A DNA stretch of 64,000 nucleotides, taken from contig JAQTYG010000001.1 in assembly GCA_028688375.1 (NCBI GenBank), forward strand, positions 7,793 to 71,792, written 5' to 3'. Of the stretch, positions 19,073 to 61,199 are shown piece by piece (positions within the stretch are counted from its first letter, which is position 1; every line of letters begins with the position of its first letter). The position numbers and the translations under genes are program-made. The notes beneath the pieces were generated by a model that was given only the letters and a program-made list of their open reading frames with translations, was not told where the DNA came from and did no database searches. The stretch is from Patescibacteria group bacterium. GTDB lineage: Bacteria > Patescibacteriota > Patescibacteriia > Magasanikbacterales > GWA2-37-8.

Positions 19073-19112
19073 GGTACGTAGTGGAAAGAAGTGGAGAACT
19101 TTTTAGCTACTG

Positions 19113-19137
19113 GATTCCCGCTTTCGCGGGAATGACA
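19113..19137 (-). repeat. GTCATTCCCG...GGGAATC palindromic repeat (family copy) in the mraZ 5' UTR
   Basis: The reverse complement reads TGTCATTCCCGCGAAAGCGGGAATC, matching repeats at 10 or more other loci. Confidence 0.7.
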
Positions 19138-26726: not shown

Positions 26727-26735
26727 ATTTCGTTT

Positions 26736-26913
26736 TGAAAATTCCAAATCCCAATGACCAATGACCAAATAAATCGCGTGAAAATCCCAAATTATAATTT
26801 AACGATTTTGTCCGCCCGAAGCGGATCCCTGCCTGCCGGCAGGCAGGCGCCTTTGGTGGAAAAATTAGAGTCTAGAATTTATTTGGGTTTTGGGGTTTGG
26901 AAATTGGGATTTA
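26736..26913. repeat. inverted-repeat MITE-like element copy 1, carrying a nested GC-hairpin insert
   Basis: Arms TTCCAAATCCCAATGACCAATGACCAAATAAAT and ATTTATTTGGGTTTTGGGGTTTGGAAATTGGGATTT. About 85% identical to 54509-54633. Nested TGTCCGCCCGAAGCGGATCCC plus CCTGCCTGCCGGCAGGCAGG at 26809-26847. Confidence 0.65.
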
Positions 26914-26980
26914 AAAACTCGGCCAAAGATCGACAAAATTAAAATTATTAAAATTCGTTTTTTGATCAGTTTATTTACTT

Positions 26981-29277: not shown

Positions 29278-29342
29278 TCTCGCCCGAAGTTTTCTCTTCG
29301 GGCCAATCCAAAAGCACCTCACGAAATGGGGTGTTTTTGCTT
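29278..29342 (+). repeat. 65-bp cassette flank (unit 1) with terminator hairpin
   Basis: Identical to 30647-30711. Contains GCCCGAAG...CTTCGGGC and a CACCTCACGAAATGGGGTG hairpin followed by TTTTTG. Confidence 0.8.
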
Positions 29343-30646: not shown

Positions 30647-30711
30647 TCTCGCCCGAAGTTTTCTCTTCGGGCCAATCCAAAAGCACCTCACGAAATGGGG
30701 TGTTTTTGCTT
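30647..30711 (+). repeat. 65-bp cassette flank (unit 2) with terminator hairpin
   Basis: 100% identical to 29278-29342. Confidence 0.8.
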
Positions 30712-30828: not shown

Positions 30829-31905
30829 ATGAACACAAAAATTTTGGACAGTTTAGACGACATCCGCAAGCTAGACGGTTCCGGCATGCTGGACAGTTTG
30901 GAACTTTTGCCCGCTCAAGTGGAAGAAATCGTTCAATCCGCGAGTAAATTGCGATTTCCCGTCGGCTACAAACGAGCGAAAAATATCGTGGTCGCCGGCA
31001 TGGGCGGTTCAGCTCTGGGCGCGCACATCATTAAATCGCTGTTCTTCAAAGAATTAACCGTGCCGATGGAAATAGTCAACGGCTATCATCTGCCCGCTTA
31101 CGTGGGCAAAGATACATTTGTTTTGCTTTCCAGTTATTCTGGCGCCACCGAGGAAACTATCTCCGCGCTAGAAGCGGCTAAAGCGAAAAAAGCCAAAATC
31201 GCGGTGATTACTTCGGGCGGACGTTTGGCCAAGTGGGCCCGGGCGACCAAGGCGCCGGCGCTGATTTTCACCACTGCTAACAATCCTTGCGGTTCGCCGC
31301 GCATGGGCTTGGGTTATTCCATCGTGGGCCAGCTGATTCTTTTTGCCAAAACCGGTTTTATTCGTTTGCCCGCCGGAGAAATTAACGCCATCATCCATTT
31401 ATTTAAAAAATTCAACGCCGAATTCGGCGTGGTCGCCAGACAACAGGAAAATATCGCCAAGCGTTTAGCCATAAAAACCGTGGACAAAACCGTTTGGTTT
31501 ATCGGCGCGGAACATCTGGCCGGCAACATGCACACCGCCGCCAACCAGATGAATGAAAACGCCAAGCGTTTCGCCGGATATTTTTTGCTGCCGGAGTTAA
31601 ATCACCATTTGATGGAAGGCCTGCTTCATCCCAAAACAAACAAAGAAAATCTGCTTTTTGTTTTAGTGGAGTCCGACCTTTACGATCACAAAATTCAAAA
31701 AAGAATGGCCATCACCAAAAAAGTATTGGAAAAAAATCGGATTGATTTCGTGTCTTACAAATGCCAAGAAGACGGCGCCGTCGCCCAGGCCATGGAAATA
31801 TTGTCCTGGTTAAGTTATACCTCTTTTTATTCCGCCCTGTTGGAAAAAATTGACCCGACGCCGATCCCGTTCGTTGATTATTTCAAAAAAGAAATAGGCA
31901 AATAA
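30829..31905 (+). CDS. bifunctional phosphoglucose/phosphomannose isomerase (SIS domain)
   Basis: Two SIS-like halves, VVAGMGGSALGA, and length typical of the archaeal-type PGI/PMI family. Confidence 0.55.
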   Translation: MNTKILDSLDDIRKLDGSGMLDSLELLPAQVEEIVQSASKLRFPVGYKRAKNIVVAGMGGSALGAHIIKSLFFKELTVPMEIVNGYHLPAYVGKDTFVLLSSYSGATEETISALEAAKAKKAKIAVITSGGRLAKWARATKAPALIFTTANNPCGSPRMGLGYSIVGQLILFAKTGFIRLPAGEINAIIHLFKKFNAEFGVVARQQENIAKRLAIKTVDKTVWFIGAEHLAGNMHTAANQMNENAKRFAGYFLLPELNHHLMEGLLHPKTNKENLLFVLVESDLYDHKIQKRMAITKKVLEKNRIDFVSYKCQEDGAVAQAMEILSWLSYTSFYSALLEKIDPTPIPFVDYFKKEIGK

Positions 31906-31920
31906 TTTTTCTGTTCACGT

Positions 31921-32030
31921 GTCATTGCGAGGAGCCCCGCATTTACGGGGTGACGAAGCAATCCCAAGGAAAGCGAATGGATCTGTTAAAAAGGGGATTG
32001 CTTCACCGCCAGTTGGCGGTTCGCAAAGAC
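31921..32030. repeat. pair of GTCATTGCG...GCAATCC family repeats in opposite orientation
   Basis: GTCATTGCGAGGAGCCCCGCATTTACGGGGTGACGAAGCAATCCC and GGGATTGCTTCACCGCCAGTTGGCGGTTCGCAAAGAC. The second is near-identical to 51315-51351. Confidence 0.7.
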
Positions 32031-32053
32031 AAGGTGGGCGCTTAATACCGAGT

Positions 32054-32917
32054 ATGGACCTCTCAATCATTTCTGTTACCTGGAATTCCCAGGAGCATAT
32101 TGCCGAGCAAATCAAATCGGTTCGTTCCGGTTGCCAAAATATTTCTTTTGAACAATTCATAGTTGATAATGGCTCCACCGACGGCACCGCCGATTTAATC
32201 GCCCGAGATTTTCCGGAGATAAAATTAATTCGTAATATTGATAACGCCGGTTTTAGCGCCGCCAACAACCAGGCGGTAAAAAAAGCGACAGGGGAGTTCC
32301 TGTTGTTTTTAAATCCCGATATGCGCGTGGCGCCGGGCAGTTTGGATAAAATGGTCGCCTGGATGCGCCAGCGCCCCAACGTGGGCATTGTGAGTTGTAA
32401 ATTAATCGACGAGCGCGGCCAAGTTAACCTTTCCGCCTTACCCAGACGCTTACCCGGAGTTTGGGATCAGCTGGCGATTATTTTAAAACTCCCGCATCTT
32501 TTTCCGGGGTTATTGGATAAATATTTATATCAAGGTTTTGACGCGGACAAAGAACAAGAAGTGGACTCAGTGCGCGGTTCGTTTATGCTGATGCGCCGCG
32601 AGGTCAGCGACCGGCTCGGCTGGGCTTTTGACCCGCGGTATTTTATTTGGTTTGAAGACGTGGATATTTGTCGGGAAACGCGGAAATTCGGTCTAAAAAT
32701 TATGTACACTCCGCTAATCAGCTGTGTGGATTATGTTGGCCAAAGTTTTAAAAAGCGCGATACTTTTTGGAAGCAAAAACAATTTACCAAAAGCATGCTG
32801 GCTTATTTCCAAAAATGGGAATCATGGCAGCGCTGGATTTGGATCGCCGTGATTCGGCCGGTTGGCTTGGGTCTGGCTTGGTTAAGCGATTTTGTGTCGC
32901 AGAAAAATAAAATATGA
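32054..32917 (+). CDS. family-2 glycosyltransferase
   Basis: ISVTWN...VDNGSTDGT, NIDNAGFSAANN and a DxD-like FLNPD. ATG at 32054 lies after the repeat pair. Confidence 0.7.
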   Translation: MDLSIISVTWNSQEHIAEQIKSVRSGCQNISFEQFIVDNGSTDGTADLIARDFPEIKLIRNIDNAGFSAANNQAVKKATGEFLLFLNPDMRVAPGSLDKMVAWMRQRPNVGIVSCKLIDERGQVNLSALPRRLPGVWDQLAIILKLPHLFPGLLDKYLYQGFDADKEQEVDSVRGSFMLMRREVSDRLGWAFDPRYFIWFEDVDICRETRKFGLKIMYTPLISCVDYVGQSFKKRDTFWKQKQFTKSMLAYFQKWESWQRWIWIAVIRPVGLGLAWLSDFVSQKNKI

Positions 32918-49304: not shown

Positions 49305-50426
49305 ATGAAAATAATGTTATCCGGCGGAGGCACGCTCGGCTCGGTGACTCCGCTCTTGGCGCTGGCCGCGGCCTATCGTAAAAATAATCCCACGGCGGAA
49401 TTTGTTTGGGTCGGCACCAAGTCCGGCCCGGAAAAAGCCATTGTGGAACAAGCGGGTATCCGTTTTATCTCCATCACTTCCGGCAAACTGCGCCGGTATT
49501 TTTCGTTTAGAAACTTTACCGACCCGTTCAAAATTCTGTTCGCTTTTTTCCAGTCCCGGGCGTTATTAAAAAAAATCAAACCAGACCTGTTGGTTTCGGT
49601 CGGCGGATTTGTCAGCGTGCCCCTCCATCGCGCCGCTTATTTTTTGAAAATTCCCACCTGGGTGCACCAGCAGGACATTATTCCCGGGCTGGCCAATATT
49701 TTGATGGCCAAAGCGGCGGATAAAGTTACCACAGCGTCCGCCCTGAGCGTTCCATATTTCAAAAGCCCAGTGGAAATCATCGGAAATTTTTGCCGTGATT
49801 TGCAGTTTGACGATAGAGGATTGGCCAAATCCAAGTTTGGCATCACCGATAACGCGCCGGTCATTTTGGCCATGGGCGGCGGCACCGGAGCGGTGAGAGT
49901 CAATGAATTGGCGCTGGCGGCCCTGGCTTCACTGCCGGCCGATTGGCACGTGATTCATTTGGTCGGGCTGGAACGCGCCAAAGAAAAATACGAACAGACG
50001 GCCAAAACCAGAAAAAATTATTTGGTTTATCAATTTCTCGATAAAGAAATGGCCGCCGCTTACGCCGCGTCCGATTTAATTATCAGTCGGGCCGGCTTTG
50101 GCGCCATCACTGAATTGGCCGCGCTGGCCAAACCCTCAATTATTTTACCGATTCCCGAATCGCCACAAGAGGCCAATGCGAAATTTTTGGCTGACGCCCA
50201 AGCCGCCCTGGTGCTGGATGAAAGAAAAATTACCGGCCAAGAATTAGCTAAAATAGCGGTTGAGTTGGTGAATAATAATCAAAAAAAGCAGGAGTTGTCC
50301 GGCAATATCCACCGGGTCCTGCCCATTGTTTCCGGAGAAAAAAATTCCGAGATTATTTCTTTTCTTTGTCATTCCCGCCCCCGCTTTCGCGAGGATAAAC
50401 TCCGGCGGGAACCTGCCTGCCGGTAG
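49305..50426 (+). CDS. murG: MurG lipid II synthase (UDP-GlcNAc transferase); C-terminus reads into a repeat element
   Basis: GGGTLGSVTPLLALA N-terminal motif and GT28 C-domain. The last ~20 codons overlay the GTCATTCCCGCC repeat. Confidence 0.75.
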   Translation: MKIMLSGGGTLGSVTPLLALAAAYRKNNPTAEFVWVGTKSGPEKAIVEQAGIRFISITSGKLRRYFSFRNFTDPFKILFAFFQSRALLKKIKPDLLVSVGGFVSVPLHRAAYFLKIPTWVHQQDIIPGLANILMAKAADKVTTASALSVPYFKSPVEIIGNFCRDLQFDDRGLAKSKFGITDNAPVILAMGGGTGAVRVNELALAALASLPADWHVIHLVGLERAKEKYEQTAKTRKNYLVYQFLDKEMAAAYAASDLIISRAGFGAITELAALAKPSIILPIPESPQEANAKFLADAQAALVLDERKITGQELAKIAVELVNNNQKKQELSGNIHRVLPIVSGEKNSEIISFLCHSRPRFREDKLRREPACR

Positions 50427-51648
50427 GCAGGTCCATTATCCGTTTCGTAATTTTCACCCCCACAATCTTGTTTTTTAAGTTTTTAGCCGAACGGAAATAA
50501 ATCGGAATATATTCCGGCGTATAGCCGAACCACGGACCGCCACGGCGCGATTCAAATAACACCGATCGCGTTTGCCCGATAAATTTTTTCGCGAATTTTT
50601 CCGCCGTTGCGTCAGCTGTTTTAATCAGCCGGGCCACTCGCTCGGTTTTTGTTTTGTCGTGGACTGATGTCATCGCCGCCGCCGGCGTATTCGGCCGTCG
50701 GGAGTAGGGGAACACGTGAACTTTGGCAAAGCCGGCTTTTTTTACGAACGTCAGCGTCTCGCCGAATTCTTTTTCCGTTTCTCCGGGGAAGCCGGCGATA
50801 ATGTCGGTGGTGAAAGAAAAAAGCGGGTCGGCTTGGCGCAGTTTTTTAATGATCGACAAATATTTTTTTGTATCATAACCGCGGTTCATTCTTTTTAAAA
50901 CCGAATCCGAGCCGGATTGCAAAGACAAGTGCCAATGGGGCATCAGACGGTGATTGGTAAATTGGCCAATTAGTTTATTGGTAATGAGGCGCGGGTCCAG
51001 CGAGCCCAAACGCACGCGCTCGATTTTTGTCTCGGTTAGTATCGTCTTCAATAATTCGGCTAAATCGATTTTGCCATTCCGGTATTGGCAAATATTTACT
51101 CCGGTTAAAATAATTTCTTTAAAACCTTTTTTGGCCGCTTGTTTTATTTTCGCGATAATATTTTTTATCGGCACGCTGGTCGCGCGTCCGCGAAAAGAGG
51201 GGATAACGCAATAGGCGCAATTAAAATTACAGCCATCTTGAATTTTTATCATCGCGCGGGTTCTAGTCATGTCATCGCGAGGAGCCCGCGAAGCGGACGA
51301 CGTGGCGATCCCATGGGATTGCTTCACCGCCAGCTGGCGGTTCGCAATGACAGTTACTCGTTTCAAAATATCACCCGCCGTCAGCGCCACATAATCAATC
51401 TCCGGCAAATCCCGATTCTCCAAACATCCGCCGGCAATCACATACGCGCCGAGTTTTTTTGCCCGTCGGATCGCTTCGCGCGCGGCCTTGCTCGCGTTCA
51501 TTGTTACCGCGCAGGCGCGAATAAGGGCGACGTCAGTCTTCCCGCCAAACGGTACGCAAACATGCCCCAGCCGGCGGAGCTCCTCAACAATTTCATTTGT
51601 TTCCGCTTGGTTGAGTTTGCAACCGAGCGTAATAAACGATATGCGCAT
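50353..51648 (-). CDS. radical-SAM methylthiotransferase (MiaB/MtaB-like) with an in-frame repeat insertion in the interdomain linker
   Basis: MTTase N-domain ISFITLGCKLNQ, CxxxCxxC in IQDGCNFNCAYC, and a TRAM-like C-terminus. Codons translating TVIANRQLAVKQSHGIATSSASRAPRDD derive from the repeat pair 51271-51351. Confidence 0.7.
   Translation of the reverse strand: MRISFITLGCKLNQAETNEIVEELRRLGHVCVPFGGKTDVALIRACAVTMNASKAAREAIRRAKKLGAYVIAGGCLENRDLPEIDYVALTAGDILKRVTVIANRQLAVKQSHGIATSSASRAPRDDMTRTRAMIKIQDGCNFNCAYCVIPSFRGRATSVPIKNIIAKIKQAAKKGFKEIILTGVNICQYRNGKIDLAELLKTILTETKIERVRLGSLDPRLITNKLIGQFTNHRLMPHWHLSLQSGSDSVLKRMNRGYDTKKYLSIIKKLRQADPLFSFTTDIIAGFPGETEKEFGETLTFVKKAGFAKVHVFPYSRRPNTPAAAMTSVHDKTKTERVARLIKTADATAEKFAKKFIGQTRSVLFESRRGGPWFGYTPEYIPIYFRSAKNLKNKIVGVKITKRIMDLPTGRQVPAGVYPRESGGGNDKEKK
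50367..50431. repeat. composite repeat of GTCATTCCCGCC...GGCGGGAA plus CCTGCCTGCCGGTAGGCAGG hairpin
   Basis: Forms the overlapping 3' ends of convergent murG and the radical-SAM gene. Confidence 0.7.
51271..51351. repeat. head-to-head pair of GTCATCGCG...GCGATCCC and GGGATTGCTTC...GCAATGAC repeats inside a CDS
   Basis: Same family as 31921-32030. Lies within the ORF 50353-51648 without interrupting the frame. Confidence 0.75.
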
Positions 51649-51690: not shown

Positions 51691-51725
51691 TGTCATTCCG
51701 ACCGGAGCGGAGGAATCCCTTCGGC
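51691..51725. repeat. GTCATTCCGACC...GGAATCCCTTCGG family repeat
   Basis: TGTCATTCCGACCGGAGCGGAGGAATCCCTTCGGC; compare 56441 and 58057. Confidence 0.7.
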
Positions 51726-53099: not shown

Positions 53100-53125
53100 A
53101 ATAAAACCGCCGATGAGGCGGTATT
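53100..53125. terminator. bidirectional terminator hairpin
   Basis: CCGCCGATGAGGCGG flanked by A-run and T-run. Confidence 0.55.
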
Positions 53126-53147
53126 ATTTTGTGACCCGGCTGGGATT
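53124..53147. repeat. 24-bp direct repeat copy A of the tRNA-Lys 3' end
   Basis: TATTTTGTGACCCGGCTGGGATTC, identical to 53331-53354. Confidence 0.75.
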
Positions 53148-53337
53148 CTGCTTCGGCTCAAATTTTCTTCCGAAAATTTGGCCTAGCCACCGCCTTCCGC
53201 CCAAGGCGGACAGGCGCGGTAACGTCAGCGGAGTTTATCCGCCTCTGGCGGAGCGTCCGAATCCCAACGCGAGCAAAACTATTTGCTCGCTGCCAGGTCA
53301 AAAATAAAAACAGCCCCAAAGGGCAGTTTTTATTTTG

Positions 53338-53410
<73 letters not shown>

Positions 53411-53448
53411 CCTCACTCAGAAATTTTATACAAAATTTCTGAGTGAGG
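53411..53448. other. perfect 17-bp hairpin abutting the tRNA-Lys 5' end
   Basis: CCTCACTCAGAAATTTT-ATACA-AAATTTCTGAGTGAGG. Confidence 0.6.
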
Positions 53449-53483
53449 GGCCGGGCCCACACGCTTGCGTGTGAGGGGTTTGG

Positions 53484-53741
53484 TCATTTTTTTATACAAT
53501 TTTTTATTCGTTCTTTTAATTTCACTAACGCTTGCGCGTGTTTCTTTAATTGCCACTCTCTTTCTTTGGCATCATATTCCGACGCGTATGCTTCATAATA
53601 TATCAGATCAAAAGGTTTTTTGTGTTTAGTATATTCACTTTCTCCAGCGTTGTGTTCGGCAAATCGTTTGCGTAAATCTCCGGTATAACCAACGTAAGTG
53701 CTTTTGTCTACTTTGCTCTGTAGCACATAAACATAATACAT
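53484..53741 (-). CDS. GIY-YIG nuclease-domain small protein (UPF0213-like)
   Basis: YYVYVLQS...YVGYTGDLRKRFAEHN GIY-YIG motif. 85 aa. Confidence 0.65.
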   Translation of the reverse strand: MYYVYVLQSKVDKSTYVGYTGDLRKRFAEHNAGESEYTKHKKPFDLIYYEAYASEYDAKEREWQLKKHAQALVKLKERIKNCIKK

Positions 53742-53841
53742 AAGGATTTCAAGTGAGGGGCGGGCCTGTTCACAATAGACATTTCACTCCGCAAATGATA
53801 CACTATATTTGTAAAAAAATCAAGAGGAGGAACCAAAACAG

Positions 53842-54468: not shown

Positions 54469-54508
54469 AATGGGAAAGCGAAAGATATTGTTTTTTAATA
54501 AATTTTTT

Positions 54509-54633
54509 AAAAATCCCAAATCCCAATATCCAATGACCAAATAAATCGCGTGAAAATTCTAAGCCACAATTTAATGATTTTGAAAATTAGAGTTTAGGAT
54601 TTATTTGGGTTTTGGGATTTGGAAATTGGAGTT
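54509..54633. repeat. inverted-repeat MITE-like element copy 2
   Basis: AAATCCCAAATCCCAATATCCAATGACCAAATAAATCGCGTGAAAAT...ATTTATTTGGGTTTTGGGATTTGGAAATTGG. Lacks the nested insert seen in copy 1. Confidence 0.65.
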
Positions 54634-54661
54634 TGACGAAATTGATTGTAAATTGCGAACT

Positions 54662-56438: not shown

Positions 56439-56440
56439 TT

Positions 56441-56494
56441 GTCATCCCGACCGAAGTGGAGGGATCCCTTCGGCGATAAATTATCGGGGATCCA
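56441..56494. repeat. GTCATCCCGACCGAAGTGGAGGGATCCCTTCGG family repeat
   Basis: Near-identical to 58057-58094. Confidence 0.7.
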
Positions 56495-58043: not shown

Positions 58044-58056
58044 CACATCATTTTTG

Positions 58057-58094
58057 TCATCCCGACCGAAGTGGAGGGATCCCTCCGGCACCCA
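58057..58094. repeat. GTCATCCCGACCGAAGTGGAGGGATCCCTCCGGCACCC family repeat right after tRNA-Gly
   Basis: Shares the GGATCCCTCCGGCACCC tail with 60092-60110. Confidence 0.7.
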
Positions 58095-60010: not shown

Positions 60011-60144
60011 CTCCCCCTCTTATAAAGAGGGGGACTAAGGGGGAGTCCTGTCATCCTCGTCACCTGTCATTCTGAACGGAGCGTAGCGCAGTGAAGAATC
60101 CCTCCGGCACCCGTCACCTGTCATTCCCGACCCGATCGGGAATC
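60011..60144. repeat. cluster of repeats: CCCCCTCTT-ATAA-AGAGGGGG hairpin plus two GTCATT family copies
   Basis: GTCATTCTGAACGGAGCGTAGCGCAGTGAAGAATCCC and GTCATTCCCGACCCGATCGGGAATCC. Confidence 0.65.
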
Positions 60145-60164
60145 CATCCCCATAATATTATTAT

Positions 60165-61154: not shown

Positions 61155-61199
61155 TGTCATTCCCACACCTCCTTGTCATTCCCGCGTAGGCGGGAATCC
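61155..61199. repeat. tandem TGTCATTCCC / TGTCATTCCCGCGTAGGCGGGAATCC family repeat
   Basis: Perfect CCCGC-GTAG-GCGGG hairpin core. Confidence 0.7.

Follow-up and report, generated by a model that had tools for sequence, protein, structure and literature searches.

An in-frame pair of inverted hairpin repeats makes up 81 nt of the coding sequence of mtaB, the gene of a radical-SAM methylthiotransferase, in a 64-kb stretch of DNA from a Patescibacteria group bacterium (assembly GCA_028688375.1, contig JAQTYG010000001.1, positions 7,793 to 71,792 of the forward strand), hereafter the window, whose own coordinates are used throughout. Our reading, to which we give a probability of roughly 80%, is that this segment is an inverted dimer of a TGTC-tagged repeat of the repetitive extragenic palindrome (REP) class, that it was inserted long ago into the linker between two domains of MtaB, that it is translated within an enzyme that still functions, and that the site has turned over since. 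The dimer belongs to a repeat family, sits in the reading frame of a gene whose enzyme signatures are intact, is absent from many orthologues, and shares its boundaries and a rare stem variant with the mtaB genes of other lineages. Dimers of tagged hairpin repeats that lie in frame within housekeeping genes have already been described; what is new here is the Patescibacteria host group, the long-loop variant of the repeat, and a MtaB linker that has been occupied repeatedly and in part by inheritance. None of the papers searched describes this for genomes of the Candidate Phyla Radiation (CPR), which is not proof of absence.

On the forward strand, positions 51271–51351 read GTCATCGCGAGGAGCCCGCGAAGCGGACGACGTGGCGATCCC-ATG-GGATTGCTTCACCGCCAGCTGGCGGTTCGCAATGAC, which comprises two inverted hairpin units whose tags and GTCAT heads face outward. 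This is the pair, there called head-to-head, that the initial annotation of the window, made from the letters alone, had placed inside the open reading frame (ORF) at 50353–51648. Unit B (51316–51352, reverse strand) comes first in gene orientation and has the layout TGTC-ATTGC-GAACCGCCAGCTGGCGGTGAA-GCAAT-CC with a nested hairpin, and unit A (51270–51311, forward strand), which is found by the family pattern described below, comes second with the layout TGTC-ATCGC-GAGGAGCCCGCGAAGCGGACGACGTG-GCGAT-CC. Both units have a 5-bp outer stem that encloses an interior of 21–26 nt with a nested hairpin. The stem of unit A is altered on both strands together, with ATCGC/GCGAT in place of ATTGC/GCAAT, making it a rare compensated variant. 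Folded as DNA, unit B reaches −9.5 kcal/mol, with a z-score of −3.3 relative to shuffled sequence. The 81 nt coincide exactly with codons 100–126 of mtaB, which runs on the reverse strand, and encode the 27-residue peptide VIANRQLAVKQSHGIATSSASRAPRDD. The 81-mer is free of stops in three of its six frames, one of which mtaB uses; about half of random insertions of the dimer would therefore leave a gene open, with no special adaptation needed.

The host gene is intact and retains the signatures of its enzyme. The ORF at 50353–51648 (reverse strand) is a single uninterrupted frame of 431 aa, which bears out the earlier claim that the insert translates without stop codons and leaves the frame intact. 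Its product scores 388.8 bits against the equivalog profile TIGR01579 (cutoff 357.05), narrowing the previous MiaB/MtaB-like assignment to MtaB, and is 100% identical to an NCBI protein annotated as MtaB from a Patescibacteria metagenome-assembled genome (MAG). MtaB is the tRNA ms2t6A methylthiotransferase. Pfam places the UPF0004 N-domain at residues 2–83 and the Radical_SAM domain at residues 134–302, so that the repeat-encoded residues occupy the interdomain linker, as had been proposed. The three N-terminal cluster cysteines, the CxxxCxxC motif and the three-domain methylthiotransferase fold are all present, and the six cluster cysteines (C10, C46, C75, C140, C144 and C147) fall in invariant columns of an alignment of 34 orthologues. 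An AlphaFold2 model built from this alignment has a mean predicted local distance difference test score (pLDDT) of 86.4 and TM-scores of 0.82 to MtaB (9a6d_A), 0.80 to MiaB (7mjz) and 0.77 to RimO (4jc0); the MtaB fold is thereby predicted to be kept despite the insert. In the model, the helix of residues 91–111 continues into the first unit of the insert, residues 112–127 are of low confidence, and residues 122–127 lie below 50. The first dozen residues of the insert are thus predicted to prolong the helix and the remainder to form a disordered loop, and we infer that MtaB with the longer linker is active.

A second A+B dimer lies at 31920–32030, where its two units (31920–31964, forward strand, and 31994–32030, reverse strand) are separated by a 29-nt spacer and, taken on the forward strand, the whole folds as DNA to −28.3 kcal/mol (z −4.6). 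Unit B of mtaB matches the copy at 31994–32030 at 35 of 37 bases (95%), with 0 such matches in 100 shuffles, and unit A aligns with 31920–31964 at ~76% identity by a hand count from the gapped alignment. This paralogous dimer sits in a gap between two genes, after the stop of the ORF at 30829–31905 and before the probable ATG of the next gene at 32055. An ORF that begins at a GTG at 31919 reads in frame through the dimer into a downstream glycosyltransferase-like ORF. Of the earlier description of this locus as an intergenic pair of the same type, the pair is confirmed, and the word intergenic depends on where the downstream domain starts. A gene caller could annotate 31919–32054 as a repeat-derived N-terminal extension. 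With the genome sampled as this one 64-kb window, which holds these two A+B dimers, the family pattern TGTCATYSCS-N(4-34)-SRATCC has 10 matches, representing 9 distinct units, against 0.04 expected. A scan of the whole window at the Rfam gathering thresholds returns four tRNAs only and nothing at the repeats.

These units resemble the CGTC-tagged REPs of Di Nocera et al. 2013 (PMC3733652), which comprise families CGTC-1 to CGTC-4 and often carry TGTC as the tag. In that description, stems of 8–9 bp begin with A-T at the first and second positions, loops measure 4–5 nt, and a short unpaired 3′ tail reads approximately CCA; inverted dimers predominate, most copies are intergenic, the elements have no known transposase of their own, and among intragenic inserts more than half are dimers or groups that encode 20–30 aa. 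The members include Neisseria dRS3 as well as the Rickettsia conorii palindromic elements RPE-4 (CGTC-4) and RPE-6 (CGTC-1). All 9 distinct units of the window carry TGTC. The A-T stem start is seen in the ATTGC/GCAAT and ATCGC/GCGAT stems of mtaB and in ATTCCCGC/GCGGGAAT at 19112 and 61174, while the tail reads CCC(A) in both mtaB units and CCA at 19112, 60119 and 61174. The 9 units in 64 kb and the 27 aa encoded by the mtaB dimer agree with a multi-copy, dimer-forming family whose intragenic members encode 20–30 aa, and the units at 19112–19137 and 61174–61199 also have the published stem and loop lengths.

Comparison with orthologues shows how much of the linker the repeat occupies. We aligned 34 sequences and then the 120 nearest orthologues, defining the linker as the segment from the N-domain helix (GDI..K) to the RTRA motif. 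The linker measures 37 aa in the window MtaB against a median of 27 aa among the 120; the insertion of ~27 aa expected from the initial annotation is therefore correct for the insert itself but not for the net lengthening, which is ~10 aa, and the repeat fills most of the linker rather than adding to a full native one. Linkers of at least 33 aa are found in 32 of the 120 orthologues. Tripeptides translated from GTCAT heads and tails (VIA, HCE, SLR, RND, QND, GMT and others), used as a repeat signature, occur in 22 of these 32 long linkers and in 5 of the 88 short ones (Fisher p = 5e-12), and ~18% of the 120 nearest orthologues have repeat-derived sequence in the linker. The closest repeat-free orthologues (proteins P0005, P0008, P0009 and others) have an unrelated linker of 25–27 aa, and repeat-derived linker residues are common to P0004, P0007, P0020, P0029 and P0086. 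At the DNA level, a dimer is present in mtaB of locus L128 (P0086), a well-formed dimer with a 24-nt spacer (fold z −5.4) in L001 (P0007), a dimer with further hairpins nested between the partners in L127 (P0029), and a single unit in L004 (P0003). The element types differ from one orthologue linker to another and include a GTCATTGCG-type, a GTCATTCTG-type (encoding 'ILRSAQNDK'), 'LPAGR' hairpins and an 'FTGMT'-type. A metagenome scan for close relatives with or without the insert returned nothing above 57% identity.

Other parts of MtaB orthologues offer related observations. Other palindromic, repeat-like in-frame inserts also occur in two further loops of the protein, after residues ~190–193 and ~231 in window numbering, among them in P0012, P0029 (L127), P0047, P0042, P0088 and others; one such insert in L127, TCTCCCCCTT-GGT-AAGGGGGAGA, encodes 'PLGKGE'. 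The metagenome contigs L178, L203 and L205 have distant mtaB matches that spread ~400 residues over 1.6–1.9 kb, which implies large insertions or interruptions. The repeat-free linker SASTSKNFEQP of P0005 and P0008 is suggestive, by eye, of a decayed repeat tail (SPSAPRNDKTAP), a resemblance on which we do not rely.

The boundaries of the insert point to an old event. In the DNA alignment, the left junction (..|GTCATTGCGA) is identical in the window, L128, L001 and L127, and the right junction (CTCGCRATGAC|A) is identical in the same four and in L004, which shares the right one only. In addition, the variant GTCATCGCGAGGAGC...GTGGCGATC, with its ATCGC/GCGAT stem, lies at the same position and in the same orientation in mtaB of the window and of L128, even though it is rare, the 1.45 Mb of DNA examined containing 3 copies of it and 237 of GTCATTGCGAG. 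As the two MtaB proteins are only ~60% identical outside the insert, the shared junctions and the shared rare variant indicate that the insertion is old. The same is suggested by the closer agreement of the insert than of its flanks between the window and L128 (89% of aligned positions vs 63–69%, with identical codons for 10 of 11 shared amino acids vs 110 of 228 outside), and by L001, in which the mtaB dimer has no other unit within 21 kb. On these grounds, we read the insertion as one old event, followed by lineage-specific decay, replacement and nested insertion, and not as a fresh arrival in this genome. A common ancestor of several Patescibacteria (Magasanikbacteria-like) lineages would have acquired the dimer between the two domains of MtaB, where it would have survived because its length is a multiple of three, the frame in use contains no stop codon and the linker is structurally permissive. 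The dimer would then have been translated as 27 residues of an MtaB that presumably remained functional, while the linker site turned over by decay, by replacement of units, probably through exchange with other copies in the genome, and by nested insertions. Replacement in the linker has been recent between one pair of relatives: the proteins P0003 and P0005 are 91% identical yet have unrelated linkers, that of P0003 carrying a unit and an 'LPAGR' hairpin and that of P0005 having neither. The 95% identity of unit B to the copy at 31994–32030 is a further sign of recent turnover.

By analogy, repeats of this kind may move as single-stranded hairpins through a nuclease acting in trans, such as a GIY-YIG enzyme of the Ssn type. 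The Neisseria NTS repeat (consensus CGTCATTCCCGCGMAVGCGGGAATCYRG) and a degenerate Ssn-related motif (SRM; search sequence HGTCWYN(0-2)YYVSBRHN(0-5)WNVSBRGN(0-2)RNCYNB) are bound and cut strand-specifically, as single-stranded DNA, by small GIY-YIG nucleases (Ssn, among them SsnA; Chenal et al. 2025, PMC11893778). According to the same paper, Ssn (cd10448) is a single-domain GIY-YIG protein whose gene is flanked by the motif, and NTS copies inside genes are rare in N. meningitidis (2%). A gene for a single-domain GIY-YIG nuclease of 85 aa is found in the window at 53484–53741 (reverse strand; PF01541, 68.8 bits), the best solved relative of its product being UPF0213 BH0048. It lies 1.8 kb from mtaB and is syntenic in L006; family units start ~1.8 kb from it, and 8 of the 9 pattern-matching units, together with a degenerate unit at 50367, lie between ~3 kb below and 8 kb above it. 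We regard this gene as a candidate partner nuclease only.

Beyond Patescibacteria, the dimer is widespread. A scan for the dimer core GAAGCAATCCC-N3-33-GGGATTGCTTC, with one genome per species, places it in at least 120 loci of Alphaproteobacteria, Bacteroidota, Chloroflexota, Nitrospirota-like bacteria, Bacillota, Planctomycetota and Patescibacteria, and the base before GTCAT in the loci listed is T in 96 cases, C in 61, A in 9 and G in 6. Among the matches listed, long stop-free frames enclose 6 of 79 complete dimers, and the length of most of these six is not divisible by three. As has been reported for REPs, the family thus sits mainly between genes, and in-frame insertion is the exception. 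A search of other proteins with the concatenated insert peptide returned only 4 weak matches, none of them with domains.

The history proposed above has to be weighed against other ways of filling the same linker. One of these, that the native linker resembles the repeat by coincidence, or that the appearance of an insertion comes from a pseudogene, from a split gene or from a chimeric assembly joined at a repeat, is effectively refuted. The MtaB linker is naturally variable in length and sequence, and MAG assemblies can collapse or join at repeats. Set against this are the near-identity of unit B to a second locus of the window, for which the chance expectation is zero, a continuous ORF with the mtaB flanks in the correct order and all catalytic motifs present, and the recurrence of the same arrangement in independent orthologue assemblies (NCBI, JGI and Logan). 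The two outcomes that would have undone the initial annotation are thus not seen: the orthologues that share linker residues do so by carrying the same element at the same boundaries, and the ORF is not split at the repeat. A more serious contender, although we consider it unlikely, is that the linker of mtaB is an integration hot spot, at which, for instance, a resident copy or a hairpin-prone sequence attracts further copies, so that the inserts are mostly independent and recent arrivals. The different element types in the same linker of different orthologues fit such a hot spot, as do the pair P0003 and P0005, which differ only at the linker, the 95% identity of unit B to a copy elsewhere in its own genome, and the inserts nested between the dimer partners in L127. 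It is difficult, on the other hand, to reconcile with independent arrival that the window and L128, with proteins so far diverged, have the rare ATCGC/GCGAT variant between identical boundaries, or that L001 has a dimer in mtaB yet no other unit within 21 kb. The palindromic inserts at two other MtaB loops fit selection for permissive sites equally well.

We consider it improbable that the dimer instead acts in cis as DNA or RNA and is maintained by selection for that role across divergent Patescibacteria, the peptide being a by-product. An Ssn-type single-strand nuclease might, for example, recognise or cleave it and so influence recombination or natural transformation near mtaB, or it might act as a hairpin in the mRNA. 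Selection on the nucleotides is suggested by the comparison of the window with L128, in which aligned positions of the insert are 89% identical and the flanking coding DNA 63–69%, and in which the same amino acid is encoded by the same codon at 10 of 11 positions in the insert against 110 of 228 outside it (p = 0.005). The compensated change of the variant stem, shared with this distant orthologue, and the presence of units upstream of mtaB, inside it and at its 3′ end, reminiscent of the NTS-gene-NTS layout (PMC11893778), can be read in the same way. The nucleotide signal comes from one pairwise comparison, however, and is absent in the comparison with L001 (8 of 14 codons in the insert, 119 of 252 outside); many orthologues do without the element, unit A folds no better than shuffled sequence, and recent gene conversion from other copies would yield the same pattern.

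A further set of results weighs against our preferred reading of an old, inherited insertion of a TGTC-tagged REP-class dimer. Ancient inheritance is not cleanly separated from repeated insertion at the same site by a rough neighbour-joining tree and one 64-kb window. The whole mtaB dimer, at z −1.1 to −1.5, folds little better than shuffled sequence and unit A alone no better at all (z +0.3), so that this copy is partly degenerate. The mtaB units lack the 8–9-bp stem and 4–5-nt loop of the CGTC-tagged REPs, and strict SRM membership was dropped, since the degenerate pattern matches at 19110–19137 only (0.2 matches expected) and not at the mtaB units. With the tag, the A-T stem start and the tail shared, yet with a different stem and interior and outside the SRM pattern, the mtaB units are filed as a long-loop variant within the CGTC/TGTC-tagged REP class and not as strict SRMs. 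None of the results ties a mobilising enzyme to the repeats. On either side of the GIY-YIG gene lies a GGCCCG(G)CCCCTCAC-type motif and not GTCAT units; in L006 the gene is present with no units within 21 kb, and L001, with its solitary dimer, has no GIY-YIG gene within the same distance. Among the dimer matches listed from other genomes, a GIY-YIG ORF occurs within ~8 kb of 1 of 120 loci; this count tells neither way on a link to Ssn, as the published association starts from the gene and not from the repeat.

The remaining units of the window are distributed as follows. A degenerate TGTC-tagged unit, accompanied by a second hairpin, CCTGCCTGCCGGTAGGCAGG, lies at 50367–50432 (forward strand; fold z −4.1) between the convergent genes mtaB and murG. 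Both ORFs read into it, which makes mtaB ~24 aa and murG ~16 aa longer than their orthologues, and the resulting C-terminal tail of MtaB has a pLDDT of ~30; these C-terminal extensions are probably annotation artefacts or tolerated tails. A further TGTC-tagged unit, at 51691–51718 (forward strand), is located 43 nt upstream of the mtaB start codon. The canonical short unit TGTCATTCCCGCGAAAGCGGGAATCC at 19112–19137 (reverse strand) and the canonical short unit TGTCATTCCCGCGTAGGCGGGAATCC at 61174–61199 (forward strand, intergenic) fit the NTS consensus except that the first base is T instead of C. On the forward strand, the pattern also finds the intergenic unit TGTCATCCCGACCGAAGTGGAGGGATCC at 56440–56467, an identical copy just after tRNA-Gly at 58055–58082, and the intergenic unit TGTCATTCCCGACCCGATCGGGAATCC at 60119–60145; the units at 51691 and 61174 are matches to it as well.

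Several other structures were noticed in passing. At 53124–53330 (reverse strand), a segment of ~180 nt that folds strongly follows immediately on tRNA-Lys and its terminator, and its last 24 nt duplicate the 3′ end of that tRNA exactly (53330–53353 and 53124–53147); its RNA fold reaches −110 kcal/mol (z −8.8), and it has no Rfam match. A related segment at 37745–37915 (reverse strand) follows tRNA-Pro(cgg), shares GCGAGCAAATAGTTTTGCTCGC and AGGCGGTGGCTAGSCC with it, and lies between direct repeats of 73 nt made up of the tRNA 3′ end and terminator, and another such segment follows tRNA-Lys in L006 (9655–9800). Together the segments suggest a small structured element that lodges at the 3′ ends of tRNAs and is accompanied by a target duplication. 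The 5′ end of the same tRNA-Lys is overlapped by a perfect 24-nt hairpin (53404–53427 / 53432–53455); this hairpin and the GIY-YIG gene with its flanking motif (window 53404–53783, reverse strand) are arranged in the same way in L006. An AT-rich inverted-repeat element of ~130–180 nt is present in two copies, at 26733–26917 and 54505–54634, that are 86–90% identical (families D8/D19 and I3–I7), and a perfect 65-nt direct repeat at 29278–29342 and 30647–30711, 1369 nt apart, carries a terminator-like hairpin.

The case extends to the CPR the 'selfish DNA inside proteins' seen in Rickettsia and a small number of other bacteria, with the same broad class of tagged hairpin repeat as Neisseria NTS and dRS3. 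Repeat-derived peptides (VIARS..KQS, ..RND, LRFAQDD, FTGMT) are common in predicted CPR proteins, where they can inflate linkers and, in annotation, extend N- and C-termini, as at the 3′ ends of mtaB and murG. The MtaB linker, with the element intact, decayed, replaced or absent, offers a natural series for studying the movement, homogenisation and selection of such repeats. The finding reveals no new mechanism and leaves knowledge of MtaB itself unchanged.

Four known systems help to place the mtaB dimer. With REPINs and BIMEs, the GTAG-tagged REPs associated with RAYT, it has in common that two inverted hairpin repeats form a larger palindrome, presumed non-autonomous and mobilised in trans as single-stranded DNA; the tag here is TGTC, not GTAG, which sets it outside that group, and no RAYT gene was seen, though no search aimed at one was made. 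Rickettsia palindromic elements (RPEs) reportedly insert in frame in protein-coding genes (Ogata et al. 2000; summarised in PMC10969869 and PMC1779305), and an RPE-7-like insert is said to be present in PheT of all Rickettsia. The mtaB dimer is likewise a palindromic repeat in frame in a conserved housekeeping enzyme, at a position where the fold tolerates an insert, and it, too, is apparently old and common to related lineages. It is shorter than an RPE (81 nt vs 100–150 bp; PMC1779305), and its ultra-small host is a free-living or episymbiotic CPR lineage, not a member of the Rickettsiales. The RPE-like behaviour put forward in the initial annotation is upheld by description and, indirectly, through the placement of R. 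conorii RPE-4 and RPE-6 in the TGTC/CGTC superfamily, for which intragenic dimers encoding 20–30 aa are on record (PMC3733652). The NTS/SRM-Ssn system provides a likeness in the oriented hairpin repeat with its GTCAT head and in the single-domain GIY-YIG gene of ~85 aa near mtaB and the units; it differs in that the mtaB units fall outside the published degenerate SRM pattern and the GIY-YIG gene has no flanking GTCAT units. The CGTC-tagged REPs come closest, through the tag, the A-T stem start, the CCA-like tail, the inverted dimers and the intragenic dimers of 20–30 aa, and the short units at 19112–19137 and 61174–61199 fit their description fully. From these, the mtaB units differ by their 5-bp outer stem and their longer interior with its nested hairpin, and by a host among the Patescibacteria, outside the five phyla listed for the class (PMC3733652).

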